From NCBI GenBank assembly GCA_963678265.1, contig OY782761.1, positions 2,490,714 to 2,554,713 of the forward strand: a stretch of 64,000 nucleotides of DNA. The letters run 5' to 3'. Numbering within the stretch: the stretch's first letter is position 1; each line of letters starts with the position of its first letter. Origin of the DNA: an uncultured Microbacter sp. Lineage in GTDB: Bacteria > Bacteroidota > Bacteroidia > Bacteroidales > Paludibacteraceae. The notes beneath the pieces were generated by a model, which was not told where the DNA came from, did no database searches, and was given only the letters and a program-made list of their open reading frames with translations. Made by a program: the position numbers and the translations under genes. Shown one piece after another: positions 2,512-27,583 of the stretch.

Positions 2512-3864
2512 ATGAGCCAGAAAGGAATCTTAGTTCATAATGCTAAAATTTTTACCGAAAAAAACACCTTCAGAGGATCTCTTCGCATAGAAGGTGAACT
2601 GATTGCTGAAATCTTCAAGGGAGAAGTTCCCGAACCAGTTTTGCAAAACAATACCGTAATCGATGCTTCCGATTTGTGGCTATTACCCGGTGTGATCGAT
2701 ACCCACGTCCATTTTCGGGAACCGGGTTTAACCCAGAAAGCCGATATGCATTCGGAATCCAAAGCTGCCGTTGCCGGAGGTGTAACCTCATTTATCGATA
2801 TGCCCAATACGGTGCCGCAGACAACCACTCTGGAGCTTTGGGAAGCGAAAAACCGACTGGCTTCCGAAAAATCGCTTGCTAATTATGCGTTCTATTTGGG
2901 GGCAACCAATGAAAACAAAGAGGAAATAAAAAATGCAGATCCCAAGCGTGTGCCTGGTGTAAAGGTGTTTTTAGGCGCATCTACCGGTAATATGCAGGTG
3001 GACGATAAAGCATTTTTACAATGGCTATTTGCCGAATCACCGTTGATGTTGACGGCTCACTGCGAAGATATGAGCATTATTCAGCGTAACATTGAAACAT
3101 ACAAAGCCCGGTTTGGCGATGATATTCCAATTCCGAATCATTATTTGATACGTTCGGGTGAGGCGTGCTACAAATCGACAGCCGCTGCGGTCGAAATGGC
3201 TTTGAAATATAAAACGCGTCTTCATATTGCGCACGTCAGTACCGCGCATGAACTGGCACTGTTTGAACCGGGCAAACCGCTGGCCGAAAAACAGATTACA
3301 GCCGAAGGGTGTGTGCATTATCTATGGTTCGATAGTCGCGATTATGAAAAACTCGGAGCAAGGATAAAATGTAATCCGGCCATCAAGGCGGAATCTGATA
3401 AAAAAGCGCTGATTCAGGCAATTATTACCAATCGGCTGGATACCATTGCTACCGATCACGCGCCTCATTTGTTGTCGGAAAAGGAGGGCGGGTGTTTGCA
3501 GGCAGCATCTGGTATACCGATGGTTCAACATTCGTTGCCGGCAATGCTTGAGTTGGCCCGTAACGGACAATTCTCTGTTGAAAAAGTGTTGGAGAAGATG
3601 TGTTATGCTCCGGCCACTTTATTTAAAATACGGAAACGAGGGTTTGTACGTAAAGGGTATTATGCCGATCTGGTATTGGTCAATCCTACCTATCCGTGGA
3701 GCGTCGGTACCGATAATATTGTTTCGAAATGCGGCTGGTCTCCTTTTGAGGGTCAGGAGTTTCATGCCCGTGTTACGCATACGTTCGTAAATGGTAAGTT
3801 AGTCTACGATAATGGGGCTTTTGATGAATCCCATAACGGTAATCCACTTCATTTCAATGATTGA
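2512..3864 (+). CDS. pyrC: dihydroorotase-type cyclic amidohydrolase
   Basis: Metal-binding motif DTHVHFREPG, HCED, and DHAPH near the C-terminus. The first plausible ATG (MSQKGILVHNAKIF) is at 2512. The upstream part of the ORF 2398.. looks like non-coding read-through. Confidence 0.75.
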   Translation: MSQKGILVHNAKIFTEKNTFRGSLRIEGELIAEIFKGEVPEPVLQNNTVIDASDLWLLPGVIDTHVHFREPGLTQKADMHSESKAAVAGGVTSFIDMPNTVPQTTTLELWEAKNRLASEKSLANYAFYLGATNENKEEIKNADPKRVPGVKVFLGASTGNMQVDDKAFLQWLFAESPLMLTAHCEDMSIIQRNIETYKARFGDDIPIPNHYLIRSGEACYKSTAAAVEMALKYKTRLHIAHVSTAHELALFEPGKPLAEKQITAEGCVHYLWFDSRDYEKLGARIKCNPAIKAESDKKALIQAIITNRLDTIATDHAPHLLSEKEGGCLQAASGIPMVQHSLPAMLELARNGQFSVEKVLEKMCYAPATLFKIRKRGFVRKGYYADLVLVNPTYPWSVGTDNIVSKCGWSPFEGQEFHARVTHTFVNGKLVYDNGAFDESHNGNPLHFND

Positions 3865-22521: not shown

Positions 22522-25500
22522 TTAACGGGGTAACCATTTTGTCGACTCTTCGGTGGTAATATCCCGCTGTGCAGCGTAATGTTTTCGTTGTTCATCGTCA
22601 ATCTTTCCGATCATAAAATAGCTCGATTGCGGATGTGCAAAGAGCAGACCGCAAACCGATGCGTTGGGTTTCATGGCTCCGTTTTCGGTAAGCGAAATGC
22701 CGATTTCGGAGAGATTCAACAGTTTGTTGAGGTCGAAGATCAATGAAAGATCGGGCAGGGAAGGGTAGCCTACCGCCGGACGAATGCCCTGGTAATGCTC
22801 TTTCAAAATCTCTTCTTTGCTCAACGCCTCATTTTCGGCATATCCCCAGAAATGACAACGAACCTGCAAGTGCAACCACTCGGCAGCTGCTTCGGCGATA
22901 CGGTCGGAGATGGACTGAATCAACAGTGCGGAGTAATCGTCATTTTGTGCGGCATACTCTTTGGCAATCTCTTCGGCTCCGGCAACCGATGTGGCAAAAG
23001 CGCCGAGATAGTCGGTGCGGTTTTCCTTTTCGGGCAGCAGAAAATCGGCCAGCGAGAGATTATTTCCGTCCGGTTTTACCGCTTGCTGACGCAACACCGG
23101 TAGAACGGTTGTCTCTCCATTATTGTGTACGACCAACGCGTCGCGGTTGTCGGTTGCGTTGGCTTCGTAGAACGATAGTACGGACTTTGCAACCACCCCT
23201 TTCGTGTTGAGCATGTTGAGCAGACGGGTAGCGTCGCGGAACAGTTTCAGCGCTTCGCGGGCCTTCTCCTGCTCTTCGGCAGGAAAACTATTGATCCACG
23301 ATTGTTCGCACGAAGGGCATTCGTGAATGTTTTCGATGCCGGGATAGCTGCCGGTGATGCGCCATGCCTTGAAGAAGAAACGCCAGTCGATGTAAGGAAA
23401 CAGCGTGTCGATGGAGATATCGAGCGTTTGGCGGTCGAATTGCGCCGGACGCAGCGGTGTGAAATTGCTCCAGTCGATATTGAGCGCGTTTTTCTTTGCT
23501 TCGGTTAACGGCAGTACCGGTGTTTTGACCTCTTTGGTAACCATCCGCTCCTGTTCGTCGCGGATAAAGGCGGCAAATTCGGCATAGGTTTGTTTGTTTA
23601 CTAATTTACCGAGGTACGAGACTCCCTGCGAAGCATCGCGCGAGTAGACCACCACGTTGTTGGTGTAGTTGGGAGCTATCTTTACGGCCGTATGTATTTT
23701 CGATGTGGTGGCGCCACCGATCATCAACGGAATGCTGAGACCCGCTTTTTGCATGGCAGCGGCTACGTGACACATCTCTTCCAGCGAAGGTGTTATCAAT
23801 CCGCTGAGACCGATCACATCCGCTTTTTCGTCGATTGCCGCCTGAATGATGCGTTCGGTGGGTACCATCACGCCCAGATCAACCACCTCGAAATTGTTGC
23901 AGGCCATGATTACACCTACAATGTTTTTACCGATGTCGTGCACATCGCCTTTTACCGTTGCCAGTACTATCTTGCCTGCTTTCTGAACTACTTGGCCGCT
24001 TTGATGCGCCTCGATGTGCGGCTGCAAAATGGCGACTGCCTGTTTCATGGTGCGGGCTGTCTTTACCACCTGCGGCAAAAACATTTTGCCCTGTCCGAAT
24101 AGATCGCCCACAGTGTTCATGCCATCCATCAGCGGTTCTTCTATGATGGTCAACGGATTTTCGTAAACGGTTAACGCTTCAGCCAAATCCTCTTCGAGGT
24201 GTTGACCGATGCCTTTGATCAGGCAGTAGGAGAGCCGTTCCTGCAATGAGCGGGTGCGCCATTCGTCCTCTTTCTTTTCGATGGTTTCGTTGTTGCTGTC
24301 GGCTTTGATCTTCTCGGCCAGCTCGATCAGTCGTTCGGTAGAGTCGGGTCTGCGGTCGAAGATCACATCGTCCACCCGTTCGAGCAACTCTTTATCGATC
24401 GATTCGTACACCTGCAACATGCCGGCGTTGACGATCCCCATGTCCATTCCGGCCTGGATAGCATAATAGAGGAACACCGAGTGCATCGCTTCACGCACCA
24501 TATTGTTACCGCGGAACGAGAAGGAGAGATTGCTCACTCCGCCACTCACTTTGGCATAGGGTAGATTTTGTTTGATCCATTCGGTAGTGCGGATAAAATC
24601 GATGGCATAGCGGTTGTGCTCTTCGATGCCGGTGGCAATAGCCAGTATGTTCGGGTCGAAGATGATGTCCTGAGGTGGAAAACCAGCCTTTTGGGTTAAC
24701 AAATCGTAGGCGCGTTTACAGATTTCGATGCGGCGTTCGAAAGTGTCGGCCTGACCCTTTTCGTCGAAGGCCATCACAACGGTAGCGGCTCCGTATTGAC
24801 GAATGGTGCGGGCATGATCCAGAAAGATATCTTCTCCCTCTTTCAGACTGATGGAGTTGACCACCGCTTTGCCTTGCAGACAGTGCAACCCGGCTTCAAT
24901 CACCTCCCATTTCGAGGAGTCGATCATGATGGGCAGCTTGGCCGCGTCCGGTTCCGACATCAGGTAGTTGAGAAACGTCACCATCTCCTCTTTGGCTTCG
25001 AGCATGGCATCGTCTATATTTACGTCGATGATTTGCGCGCCATCTTCCACCTGTTGGCGGGCAATGCTAACCGCCTCTTCGTATTTCTTCTCGGCAATCA
25101 ACCGCAAAAACTTGCGCGATCCGGCCACGTTGCATCGTTCCCCGATGTTGACGAAGAGGGAGCGAGTCGCTGATTCTGTAGCGTCTGACCTCTCCCCCTG
25201 CCCCCTCTCCCGAGGAGAGGGGATAATCTGGGTTGGAGACGCGTCGACCTCTCCTGTTCCCTCTCCCGAGGAGAGGGAATAGTCTGCCTGCTTCGGAGGA
25301 GTTGATTTATTTGAAAGAAACTCTTTTATTTCGTTTATAACCTGATCTGTGTCCTCTGTTACCTGCTTGTTGGAAAATCGGATCACATCAAATCCCTGAG
25401 TTTTGAGTATTCGGGTACGTTCTTGATCCCGGGCCTGATTTTCGGGAGAAAGATGAATGTTGCCATCTACCTCAATGACGACGCGTTTTTCGATACAAAC

Positions 25501-26802
25501 AAAATCGGCAATGTAGCCGTCGACAACCTGTTGCCGTTTTATTTTGAATTCGATATTTTTTCTTCTTAAGGCCTCCCACAGCAAAGCTTCCGCTTCCGTT
25601 GGATTTTTACGCATCTCTTTGGCAATCGGTTGAAGCAGTTTCCAGCTGTCGGCTGATGTGGTGTAATAACCTGGTTGAGAGTGACGGCTTGTTTCTGTAG
25701 TGTCGGAGGTTGTTCCCCTCTCCTCGGGAGAGGGGTTAGGGGAGAGGTCGGACGGTGCAAGCGACACAATCTCTAACAGTTCCAGACCACTCAGCATAAG
25801 ATTGGTTGATTCAACAGCCGGTCTCCGTACCTTTTTGCCTTCCACCAGTGCATAATATTTTGCAATGTGATCGGGGGTCGTGCCGCAGCAGCCACCGATA
25901 ATATTTACCAATCCTTCGTTGAGGTATTCTTCGATCTGCGTGGCCATCATCTCCGGCGTCTCGTCGTAAGCGCCGAAACGGTTGGGGAGTCCGGCATTGG
26001 GGTGCGCACTTACGTACCAGGGCGCAAAAGCAGACAACTCTTCGAGGTACGGTTTCAGGTCGCGGGCACCGAACGAGCAGTTGAGCCCTACCGAAAGCAG
26101 GTTGGCATGAGAGATGGAGGCCAGAAAAGCGCGGATGGTCTGTCCCGAAAGGGTACGCCCGCTCTTGTCGGCTATGGTTGCCGAAAGCATCAGCGCCGCT
26201 TTGATACCGGTCTTTTCCATTGCGAGGTTCGCGGCACGAATAGCGGCTTTGGCATTGAGCGTATCGAAAATGGTTTCGATAAAAATGGCATCCACGCCAC
26301 CTTCGAGCAGTGTTTCTATCTGTTCCTGATAGGCAACCGTCAGGTCGTCGAAGGTTACGCTACGAAAAGCGGGATTGTTCACATCGGGCGAAAGGGAGGC
26401 GGTTTTATTCGTCGGTCCAACCGAACCGGCCACAAAACGGGGCTTGTCGGGATTCTGTGCCGTAAACTCATCGGCCAGACGGCGCGCCAGTTTGGCACCT
26501 TCCCGGTTGATGGTGCGTACCTGCGTTTCCATACCGTAGTCGGCCATCGAGATAGCCTGCGCGTTGAAGGTATTGGTCTCGATGATGTCGGCACCGGCTT
26601 CCAGGTATTGACGATGTATTGCCGAAATGATATCCGGTTGCGAGAGGCAGAGCAGGTCGTTGTTTCCCTTTTGCGGAATGGCAACGCCGGCAAAAAGCGC
26701 TCCCCGGTACTGTTCTTCGGTAAGTTTATAGCGTTGAATCATCGTTCCCATTGCTCCATCGAGAATGAGGATGCGATTCTGTAGTACATCTTTCAATTGC
26801 AT
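22522..26802 (-). CDS. metH: cobalamin-dependent methionine synthase MetH carrying a 201-aa in-frame insertion
   Basis: All four modules are present: Hcy S-methyltransferase ([11 protein letters not shown]), pterin-binding ([16 protein letters not shown]), B12-binding ([11 protein letters not shown]) and AdoMet activation ([13 protein letters not shown]). The ORF is 1426 aa, against about 1227 aa for E. coli MetH. Confidence 0.9.
25187..25222. repeat. GC-rich hairpin repeat, copy A (gacctctcccc-N-ccctctcc cgag gagagggg)
   Basis: It is the reverse complement of copy C apart from the short spacer. It contains an internal 9-bp palindrome. Confidence 0.85.
25246..25277. repeat. GC-rich hairpin repeat, copy B (direct duplicate of A)
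   Basis: Sequence gacctctcctgttccctctcccgaggagaggg, 24 nt after copy A. Confidence 0.8.
25715..25749. repeat. GC-rich hairpin repeat, copy C (inverted relative to A and B)
   Basis: Sequence cccctctcctcgggagaggggttaggggagaggtc. Confidence 0.85.
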
Positions 26803-26831
26803 GAATTTATTGTTTAATGTTTAGTGTGTAA

Positions 26832-26936
26832 GACCTCTCTTTCCGTCCTCTCCAAAAGGGAGGAAGCTGATTCTTGACTCTTTACTCTTTGTTTGCAGAT
26901 TGCCCCTCTCTCCGGGAGAGGGGTTGGGGAGAGGTC
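26832..26936. repeat. miniature inverted pair of the same hairpin repeat, without a nuclease gene
   Basis: A degenerate A-type copy (gacctctctttccgtcctctccaaaagggagga, 26832-26863) and a C-type copy (cccctctctccgggagaggggttggggagaggtc, 26903-26936) are separated by about 40 nt. The pair spans the pnuC stop codon. Confidence 0.6.
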
Positions 26937-27583
26937 ACATTCTCAAATCCGGTTCGGTACAATTTTATCCAGTTTATCAATCCGTAAACGGCCATCAGGG
27001 TGAAAATCAGATATTCGAGCGAAAAGAACTGAATGCCTTTCAGCCAGTACATAACAGTACAAATAATATCTACAACGATCCATAATATCCACGTCTCCAC
27101 TTTGCGTTGCGCCATCATCCAGTTAGCCAGAATGCTGAGTACTGCTACGAAGGTGTCGGGGTAGGGAAACGCGGCCTCCGTAGGAAACAAATTTGGAAAA
27201 ATCTGATGAATATGGCTCATAAAATAGCCTATTCCGGCGGTACCTATTACAACAAGTATAGCATGTATAATTCGTCCTCTTCGTGTAAGAAGTGTTATCG
27301 GAGTCTGTGTCTCTGTTTTGATTCCGTGCCAGTAGATCCATCCGTATATTGCCGTTGCGGCGTAATATAGTTGAAGAAACATGTCACTATAAAGACTTGT
27401 CTGGTAGAAAACAAAAAAAGAGAAAACGATTCCTATTATTCCGACCGGCCATGTCCATATATTAGATCGCGTTTCTAAAATGACGGCGACAATGCCGGTT
27501 ACGGTTCCGAGCAGCTCCACCAAGCTCATTTTATATCCTAAAATTTCGGCTATTGTGTAATTAATGCTTAAAAAATCAGTCAT
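26882..27583 (-). CDS. pnuC: PnuC-family nicotinamide riboside (vitamin) transporter
   Basis: 233 aa with about 7 TM helices and PnuC W-rich motifs (NIWTWPVGIIG, YGWIYW, WILWIVVD, GLINW). The last ~18 aa (VTSPQPLSRREGQSANKE) are encoded by the hairpin repeat. Confidence 0.8.
   Translation of the reverse strand: MTDFLSINYTIAEILGYKMSLVELLGTVTGIVAVILETRSNIWTWPVGIIGIVFSFFVFYQTSLYSDMFLQLYYAATAIYGWIYWHGIKTETQTPITLLTRRGRIIHAILVVIGTAGIGYFMSHIHQIFPNLFPTEAAFPYPDTFVAVLSILANWMMAQRKVETWILWIVVDIICTVMYWLKGIQFFSLEYLIFTLMAVYGLINWIKLYRTGFENVTSPQPLSRREGQSANKE

Follow-up and report, generated by a model that had tools for sequence, protein, structure and literature searches.

A hairpin-bounded DUF559 nuclease cassette carried in frame within metH of an uncultured Microbacter, a probable selfish element translated as part of its host protein

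Selfish nucleases are known to reside in essential genes by way of self-splicing introns or inteins, and fixed positions beside conserved motifs are typical of inteins and homing endonuclease genes. EDxHD homing endonucleases such as I-Bth0305I carry a large N-terminal DNA-binding region, and the genes of the REP-associated tyrosine transposases (RAYTs; REP, repetitive extragenic palindrome) are intergenic and mostly vertically inherited. Homing endonucleases built on the Vsr-like or EDxHD fold are well documented (PMC2677866, PMC3239194, PMC3384342). Insertions of the ShiLan type in phage methylase genes, described in 2025, do not splice, are stop-free in the host frame and hide an out-of-frame HNH nuclease (PMC11855218). 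Rickettsia palindromic elements (RPEs; Ogata et al. 2000) and intragenic REPs are palindromes that lie in frame and are translated inside functional proteins (PMC3733652). The 64,000-nucleotide stretch of DNA analyzed here, termed the window (uncultured Microbacter sp., Bacteroidales, Paludibacteraceae; GenBank assembly GCA_963678265.1, contig OY782761.1, positions 2,490,714 to 2,554,713), contains a metH gene (22522..26802, minus strand) whose open reading frame (ORF) of 1426 amino acids runs unbroken through a 603-nt cassette (25162..25764, minus strand) encoding 201 residues that are missing from the orthologues. The cassette places a DUF559 nuclease domain between inverted repeats that form hairpins, and it probably represents a selfish, translated-through element of ~0.55-0.75 kb spread by homing-like copying through break and repair. 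Such an element would use a third way of living in essential genes, namely plain translation, insulated by disordered tethers that derive from the element's own terminal repeats.

The Pfam domain order of the metH ORF is homocysteine S-methyltransferase (residues 12-316), DUF559 (392-496), pterin-binding (554-792), B12 cap (853-926), B12-binding (943-1034) and activation domain (1131-1413). The insert is placed between the homocysteine S-methyltransferase and pterin-binding domains with the normal five MetH domains on either side, and the Zn-site motifs, the B12 motif GDVHDIGKN and RPAVGYP are all found in the translation. At E ≤ 0.01 the scan of the MetH ORF returns the five MetH domains, DUF559 and MTES_1575 and nothing else, the Vsr family (PF03852) and intein (Hint) families being absent from its matches; a weak match to DUF2726 arises only when the 201-residue insert is scanned alone. 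The DUF559 match (PF04480) has an E-value of 4.5e-32 and a score of 110.6 bits compared with a cut-off of 20.6, and covers profile positions 5-108 of 109. The original prediction, made from the letters of the sequence, had described an uninterrupted ORF of 1426 residues with about 201 extra residues (603 nt) bearing a DUF559 pattern; the ORF listing, the exact length of the insert and the strong profile match bear this out.

The nuclease core (25309..25653, minus strand; insert residues 38-152, MetH residues ~384-498) has 45% sequence identity with PDB entry 3HRL, a DUF559 protein of unknown function. In an AlphaFold2 model built on a 55-sequence alignment, the predicted local distance difference test (pLDDT) exceeds 90 for most of the core, and the hairpin-encoded flanks (insert residues 1-37 and 153-201) have pLDDT ~50 and are predicted to be disordered. 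The top Foldseek matches are 3HRL (template modeling (TM) score 0.84) and the catalytic domain of I-Bth0305I (PDB code 3r3p, TM 0.78, probability 1.0), with the Vsr structure (PDB code 1cw0) a weak match (E = 0.17). The family-invariant residues E59, W63, Q78, D87, F88, C90, E98, D100, G101, D113, R116 and R129 are all present, with E98, D100 and D113 invariant and H104 near-invariant across the family alignment. The core thus has the same catalytic fold as the EDxHD homing endonucleases, which include I-Bth0305I and the 'fractured gene' enzymes (Dassa et al. 2009), and both have conserved acidic and histidine residues of catalytic type and occupy conserved genes at fixed motif-adjacent sites (PMC2677866, PMC3239194). 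Known EDxHD members are free-standing ORFs in group I introns, or stand between split-intein halves with a start codon of their own, whereas the cassette has a ~115-residue core only, no conserved start of its own, fusion to the host on both sides and hairpin boundaries. The ~37 residues that precede the core are of hairpin-encoded low complexity, and there is no N-terminal DNA-binding region as in EDxHD homing endonucleases.

The ratio of nonsynonymous to synonymous divergence (dN/dS) of the core is 0.07-0.25 where dS is estimable, indicating purifying selection, and the flank C-terminal to it is relaxed with dN/dS mostly 0.4-0.8. The metH flanks are strongly constrained, with a proportion of nonsynonymous differences (pN) of 0.05-0.15 and a saturated synonymous proportion (pS), and when the same pairs are compared the core has diverged less than metH at synonymous sites (for example 0.50 versus 0.75). 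In two carriers from Paludibacter (L011 and L012, described below) no in-frame ATG, GTG or TTG is present between the left repeat and the core, and the methionine chosen by gene callers as the start is replaced by leucine (TTA); the complete domain can therefore be produced only as part of MetH in these two.

Inteins with a homing endonuclease resemble the cassette in their in-frame placement beside invariant motifs of essential proteins, in the nested nuclease and in their sporadic occurrence among close relatives. The cassette differs in having no Hint domain and no Cys/Ser...His-Asn junction chemistry: its C-terminal junction reads ...SATR|SLF, where the peptide TESATR encoded at the cassette end directly precedes the host SLF. 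The mature protein must retain the insert, in keeping with the earlier proposal of an intein-like logic without splicing motifs. Scans of the window give no match to Rfam families, group I and II introns included, and no tRNA, and thus no known ribozyme, intron or tRNA target is present there. The insert varies from 172 to 238 amino acids among species and the frame is kept throughout, and this strict upkeep through many indels argues for translation and against an intron. The ShiLan-type elements are likewise non-splicing, homing-type insertions, stop-free in the host frame, and are predicted to loop out. They differ in carrying their HNH nuclease out of frame with its own GTG start in phages, and the accessible part of their description notes no terminal hairpin repeats or MITE-like derivatives (MITE, miniature inverted-repeat transposable element) (PMC11855218); the cassette has a nuclease of DUF559 fold in the host frame and resides in bacterial housekeeping genes. 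Compared with insertion sequence (IS) elements and DNA transposons, the cassette has terminal inverted repeats but neither a transposase nor a target-site duplication. DUF559 is its sole domain in Pfam, with no DDE, HUH, serine, tyrosine or Y1 transposase domain, no cytosine methyltransferase adjoins it among the neighboring ORFs of the window, and no target-site duplication is present at the DNA level between filled and empty metH sites or at MITE-like copies. The dipeptide 'SL' found at both junctions was considered as a target-site duplication and rejected, as the underlying DNA differs (AGTTTG versus TCATTA; TCGCTT versus TCCCTC).

A junction query with the insert removed recovers at least 7,963 MetH relatives, and none of the best 120 (64-75% identity, from Paludibacter and other Bacteroidales) contains a DUF559 domain. 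Ten aligned orthologues have a short linker of 3-4 residues at the insert site. The spacing of the junction is identical in all 109 insert-free matches in which both anchor motifs were found, and none of these 109 shows a MITE-only intermediate. Empty-site metH DNA was recovered in three loci (L004, L005 and L020), and the sequence spans GAAATAGAAGATAGTACTCTTTTCGTCAAC in L020 and L004. In agreement with the initial reading, the insert is therefore not a conserved feature of Bacteroidota MetH. Filled sites were sought among relatives, as had also been proposed, by a scan of species-representative genomes with peptide patterns that include the hairpin-encoded SPNPSPEE, to which metagenome contigs were added; most loci are contigs of metagenome-assembled genomes (MAGs) or metagenomes. 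The cassette occupies the identical codon in six Paludibacter MAGs (L007-L012) and in a Microbacter MAG (L006), where the flank is 97% and the insert 89% identical to the window, a similarity that by itself suggests a Microbacter-like source for the window. Both metH halves are in frame with the cassette in L007, L008, L009, L011 and L012, and the downstream half is in frame with it in L010. Metagenome copies are present at the same codon in L001, L078 and L116, the last two in frame. The structure is shared by >10 independent assemblies and the frame is kept in most of them, which speaks for an intact gene, as first suggested, and not a pseudogene. The closest homologue of the insert (P0001, 60% identity) sits between the metH halves of L001 (L001:3840-4500), where metH is called as three ORFs with a stop codon and frame shifts at both cassette junctions and the right end of the cassette carries a duplicated GGGGGTGAGGTCAT. 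The upstream and downstream MetH halves of L001 are 84% and 95% identical to an insert-free relative (P0062) and 76% and 74% identical to the window.

Carriers and non-carriers are interleaved in a neighbor-joining tree of the MetH flanks. Between the carrier L012 and the empty allele L020, flank identity is 96.6% across 1951 nt upstream and 94.4% across 695 nt downstream, with the final ~80 nt upstream of the junction falling to ~68% identity, and this diverged stretch reads as a sharp recombination tract linked to gain or loss of the cassette. Neither L011 nor L007 resembles this stretch more closely than the empty allele does, and no donor for co-conversion of the L012 flank is found in these two. 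The hosts L010, L011 and L012 are equidistant (90-91%), yet the inserts of L011 and L012 are 87% identical compared with 64-65% to L010, and L011 and L012 share one junction peptide. The interleaving, the diverged tract, the similarity of these two inserts and the lower dS of the core together suggest that the cassette has moved through homologous recombination into a fixed site, on top of vertical inheritance, a pattern that indicates recombinational movement and does not prove nuclease-driven homing.

A phmmer search with the insert against 1.84 billion representative sequences gives 22,327 matches at E ≤ 0.001. Among the best 150 of these, 64 are at least 280 amino acids long, and in the long homologues checked individually DUF559 is internal or fused terminally. 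The partner domains span 87 Pfam families, including leucyl-tRNA synthetase (LeuRS, 7), SpoIIE phosphatases (6), Type ISP restriction enzymes (6), chorismate synthase (3), glycosyltransferases (3), DEAD/RecQ helicases (3), B12-binding domains (3) and trehalase among others; some of them, for example the restriction enzymes, may be genuine fusions. The hairpin-DUF559-hairpin unit lies in frame at two other MetH sites and in LeuRS, SpoIIE, RecQ, trehalase and methylmalonyl-CoA mutase. Each host family has one fixed cassette site, usually abutting an invariant motif. At MetH site 1 the cassette stands directly before the invariant motif. In LeuRS of Flavobacteriales, Cytophagales and several metagenomes it is found between NWIGKS.GA...F.V and I.VFTTRPDTI, in SpoIIE between GDFYW and DCTGHG, and in RecQ before LTATAT. 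MetH site 2 is the linker before the B12-binding motif, occupied in Lewinellaceae SD302 (L015:3998-4581) and a metagenome contig (L058) within in-frame ORFs of 1504 and 1447 amino acids, and the third site lies inside the activation domain (L124). The idea that the cassette had landed in a flexible linker is only half right: the position is a fixed codon beside an invariant motif in each host family and not simply any linker. A neighbor-joining tree of the cores, used as a hint only, groups metH site 1 (as one clade), metH site 2 and most SpoIIE copies by site, with the LeuRS copies dispersed on long unresolved branches and not forming a clade. The presence or absence of the cassette between near-identical metH genes and its recurrence in unrelated enzymes agree with the initial view of a selfish cassette held inside the host polypeptide.

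The association extends to Alphaproteobacteria. In a Devosia sp. MAG (L141:1501-2043 and 3332-3543) a DUF559 gene is bracketed by CCTCTCCCC-TGA-GGGGAGAGG hairpins, whose arms are the same 9-mers as in Bacteroidota; the gene occupies the whole intergenic gap from an aldehyde dehydrogenase to an M20 peptidase, and a second copy is located 1.4 kb away. A DUF559 copy in Salinarimonas (L018:3685-4607) is bracketed by related GC-rich palindromes, and several proteobacterial homologues have N-terminal peptides resembling the repeat-encoded ones. This co-occurrence across phyla suggests that the palindrome is the cognate DNA of the nuclease. In four metagenome loci (L029, L060, L071 and L120) a cassette is attached to the extreme C terminus of a large protein ending …VVVDFKFGKP…GYLWYG, and these copies end in their own stop codon and are terminal, not internal, insertions.

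The terminal inverted repeats of the window cassette are read in the metH frame. The 5' (N-terminal) repeat (25714..25759) contains a hairpin at 25715-25735 and the outer arm GGGGAGAGGTC at 25739-25749, the 3' (C-terminal) repeat (25177..25223) contains a hairpin at 25202-25222 and the outer arm GACCTCTCCCC at 25187-25197, and an inner duplicate of the 3'-end repeat (25245..25282), also in the metH frame, contains a hairpin at 25258-25278. All three hairpins have a perfect 9-bp stem and a 3-nt loop. The inverted repeats are 93% complementary over 29 nt (25195-25223 and 25714-25742) and continue into 25177-25204 and 25732-25759. An outer extension of the window copy (25162..25176), in which GTCGCT at 25166-25171 pairs with AGCGAC at 25760-25765, gives an end-to-end alignment score of 74 and is not present in the Paludibacter copies. 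The inverted ends of the cassette are 29-65 nt, and terminal inverted repeats are common to all loci compared. Repeat alignment and stem search therefore confirm the inverted GC-rich repeats, 9-bp hairpins and tandem duplicate of the original prediction. Four matches to the hairpin pattern are present in the window compared with 0.08 expected from shuffles, the fourth copy (26903-26923) being outside the cassette, and the DNA hairpin of the 5'-end repeat has a folding energy of -11.4 kcal/mol (z = -2.9).

All cassettes examined have at their ends the unit G(A/T/G)CCTCTCCCC-N3-CCCCTCTCC-N3-GGAGAGGGG and its inverse, which bracket cassettes in metH (three sites), leuS and the methylmalonyl-CoA mutase gene of Bacteroidales, Flavobacteriales, Cytophagales and Lewinellaceae; empty loci carry no repeat unit. 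The repeat-DUF559-repeat orientation and phase are constant across four orders and several host genes. In seven species the 39-nt left repeat has a third-position identity of 0.91 compared with 0.39-0.49 elsewhere, with synonymous sites almost all unchanged, and because these positions are frozen the constraint acts on DNA or RNA and not on the peptide. The hairpin stems are nearly invariant in sequence and the metagenome set was chosen by exact pattern, and hence stem covariation is uninformative. The string GTAGCGTC precedes one arm in the window copy, but the Paludibacter copies do not share it. Also present in the window is an 18-nt direct repeat, TGATTCTGTAGCGTCTGA / TGTTTCTGTAGTGTCGGA (25166-25188 versus 25690-25707), outside one hairpin and inside the other, which yields the peptide echo SDATESATR / TSDTTETSR and contains a GTAG-CGTC string like the tags of RAYT-mobilized REPs, again without conservation in Paludibacter. 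In leuS of a Parvicellaceae member (L013:223-560), ~3.5 tandem copies of a 99-nt unit with two hairpins each lie in frame and precede the DUF559 core inside LeuRS, and hairpin units can therefore amplify locally within coding sequence.

The hairpin repeats are not confined to the window copy: they are the conserved ends of a whole family of elements, among them MITE-like and solo forms without an ORF. A metagenome scan for the repeat unit, with loci picked by exact pattern, finds at least 120 loci. Of the 120 listed, 14 carry DUF559 and 88% have no DUF559 nearby; the others include 66 single units, 20 inverted pairs and 17 direct arrays. The 20 inverted, MITE-like pairs have spacers of 12-136 nt and are mostly ~110-125 bp overall. 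Solo units are found within ORFs with at least 100 amino acids on both sides in 23 cases, one of them in another MetH linker and one in an apparent class I aminoacyl-tRNA synthetase, assigned by motif alone. At the cassette's own site in leuS, the locus L074 consists of the left repeat, an N-terminal remnant of DUF559 and the right repeat, an arrangement that makes it an internal-deletion derivative of the cassette. The solo and MITE-like copies behave like RPEs and intragenic REPs in being in frame and translated; RPEs and REPs are without coding capacity, whereas a subset of the hairpin family carries a nuclease ORF between inverted copies. The family also resembles the REPtrons and REPINs of the REP/RAYT system, in which an enzyme gene is flanked by inverted palindromes and many ORF-less repeat copies are dispersed, but the REPtron enzyme is an HUH/Y1 transposase and that of the cassette is a nuclease of PD-(D/E)xK type inside coding sequences.

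These features are probably best explained by a selfish cassette that persists in essential genes by being translated through. The repeats are open in most reading frames and code for tethers rich in Pro, Ser, Gly and Glu that are predicted to be disordered, so that the nuclease, produced as an internal domain of the host protein, could fold on its own, like a bead set into a linker or loop of the host, with MetH keeping its function. We infer that the nuclease would break or nick cassette-less DNA, either an empty allele or a hairpin-only copy, and that recombinational repair would then copy the cassette in, as in homing. The hairpin repeats may serve as a cis-acting recognition site, as homology arms where hairpin-only copies act as 'landing pads' for the cassette, or as both, and internal deletion would give rise to the MITE-like and solo-hairpin derivatives. 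To our knowledge PD-(D/E)xK nucleases alone cannot perform strand transfer, and break and repair is therefore the only precedented route.

Several points weigh against this explanation. The trees of insert and host agree broadly, with the window and Microbacter as outgroup in both, and the distribution in Paludibacteraceae metH is largely compatible with long vertical inheritance and occasional allele replacement. The neighbor-joining trees are without support values, and dS is saturated for most pairs, the distant ones above all. The use of SPNPSPEE among the scan patterns biases recovery to copies read in that frame. The frameshifts of L001 may be an assembly error or the sign of a decaying or split gene, and L003 is apparently frameshifted too. 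Cleavage by this protein and its close relatives is a prediction, and the ~115-residue core lacks the large N-terminal region that would be expected to confer specificity for long sites, so that site-specific homing by this minimal domain is conjectural. Because classical homing needs no terminal repeats, the strong conservation of those seen here hints that another mechanism may operate instead or as well. With most of the listed repeat loci free of DUF559, the repeats may also move by other means.

More tentatively, and with the balance of our judgment slightly against it, the DUF559 cassettes with CCTCTCCCC/GGGGAGAGG hairpin termini may form a previously unrecognized class of mobile element that is autonomous and translatable, with a nuclease that recognizes its own palindromic ends, seeds in-frame MITE-like and solo hairpins and invades the motifs of essential genes without splicing. 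No account of hairpin-flanked in-frame DUF559 cassettes was found in the open-access literature, and none that combines conserved hairpin termini and MITE-like derivatives with a DUF559 domain in frame inside bacterial housekeeping genes, although earlier work may exist. If such a class is real, it would give DUF559 a function and translated palindromic repeats a mobilizing enzyme, and would constitute a counterpart of the RPEs in Bacteroidota and Alphaproteobacteria. We know of no mobilizing enzyme for the RPEs, and the cassette is a candidate autonomous parent for in-frame palindromic repeats of that kind. DUF559 is a very large orphan family that is linked here to a conserved palindromic DNA motif across phyla, and at least part of it may consist of mobile-element nucleases. 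In annotation, cassettes may lie behind oversized MetH, LeuRS, RecQ and SpoIIE proteins and behind genes that appear 'split' in MAGs. The cassettes would also flag naturally validated permissive insertion sites for the engineering of multi-domain enzymes, and may offer enzymology a compact nuclease whose target, a hairpin or palindrome, is defined.

The best surviving alternative, which we regard as unlikely, is that the hairpin repeats form a REP/RPE-like or MITE family of their own, moved by recombination or by an enzyme encoded elsewhere, such as a RAYT-type or IS transposase, with DUF559 a passenger or preferred neighbor that has a Vsr-like repair or defense job. The 88% of listed repeat loci without DUF559 keep this alive, as do the solo repeats in frame in many proteins and the inability of PD-(D/E)xK nucleases to transfer strands. 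In addition, the behavior of a DUF559 protein in Caulobacter resembles that of a chromosomal nuclease with a link to cytosine methylation (PMC12907096). Against it stand the constant orientation and phase of the repeat-DUF559-repeat unit, the same palindrome arms alongside DUF559 in another phylum and the origin of L074, a MITE-like form, from a cassette by internal deletion. No transposase adjoins the cassettes in the ~8-kb genome loci examined, in a search that was not exhaustive, and a repair or defense gene would have no reason to occupy in-frame motif-adjacent sites in LeuRS, MetH and RecQ.

Quite improbable in our estimate is an old immobile insertion, in which a single ancestral event in Paludibacteraceae metH, with separate ancient events in leuS and other genes, would have been inherited vertically, empty alleles arising by replacement and the nuclease being kept for host benefit or slowly decaying. 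The congruence of the insert and host trees and the single clade of metH site-1 cassettes fit such a history. A dN/dS of 0.07-0.25 does not, given that the domain could not plausibly contribute to methionine synthesis, nor does presence and absence at ~95-97% flank DNA identity next to a sharply diverged junction tract. The inserts of L011 and L012 are far closer than their equidistant hosts predict, and the LeuRS site is shared across orders although the cassette cores found there are not a clade.

That DUF559 has become a functional new domain of MetH, a neofunctionalized fusion and not a parasite, is very improbable: purifying selection and translation with the host would suit it, but the domain is missing from the best 120 of the MetH relatives, an identical cassette is present in functionally unrelated enzymes, its ends are terminal inverted repeats with MITE-like derivatives and its tethers are predicted to be disordered. 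Just as improbable is an intein, a bacterial intein-like domain or an intron removed after transcription or translation, or else an assembly artifact or pseudogene, since the intein-like motif-adjacent position and the serine at the start of the insert and at the next host residue are set against the missing Hint domain, His-Asn junction and Rfam introns, against ~37-50 disordered flanking residues that are too few for splicing blocks, and against the recurrence of the structure in independent assemblies.

The fourth hairpin of the window belongs to an ORF-less element of ~115 bp (26822..26936) between the metH start and the 3' end of a gene for a PnuC/nicotinamide mononucleotide transporter. 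Its left repeat (26822-26869) is degenerate and is separated by a 27-nt spacer from a near-perfect right repeat (26897-26936), which includes the hairpin, and the element overlaps the 80-nt gap upstream of metH. Its architecture is that of the 20 metagenome pairs, and like them it is short, lacks an ORF and has the inverted termini of a coding element, as MITEs are defined, with one arm degenerate in this copy. The PnuC ORF (26882..27583, minus strand) takes its last ~17 codons and its stop codon from the element; the Pfam profile of PnuC is complete by residue 207 of 233, and the element-derived tail reads …TSPQPLSRREGQSANKE.

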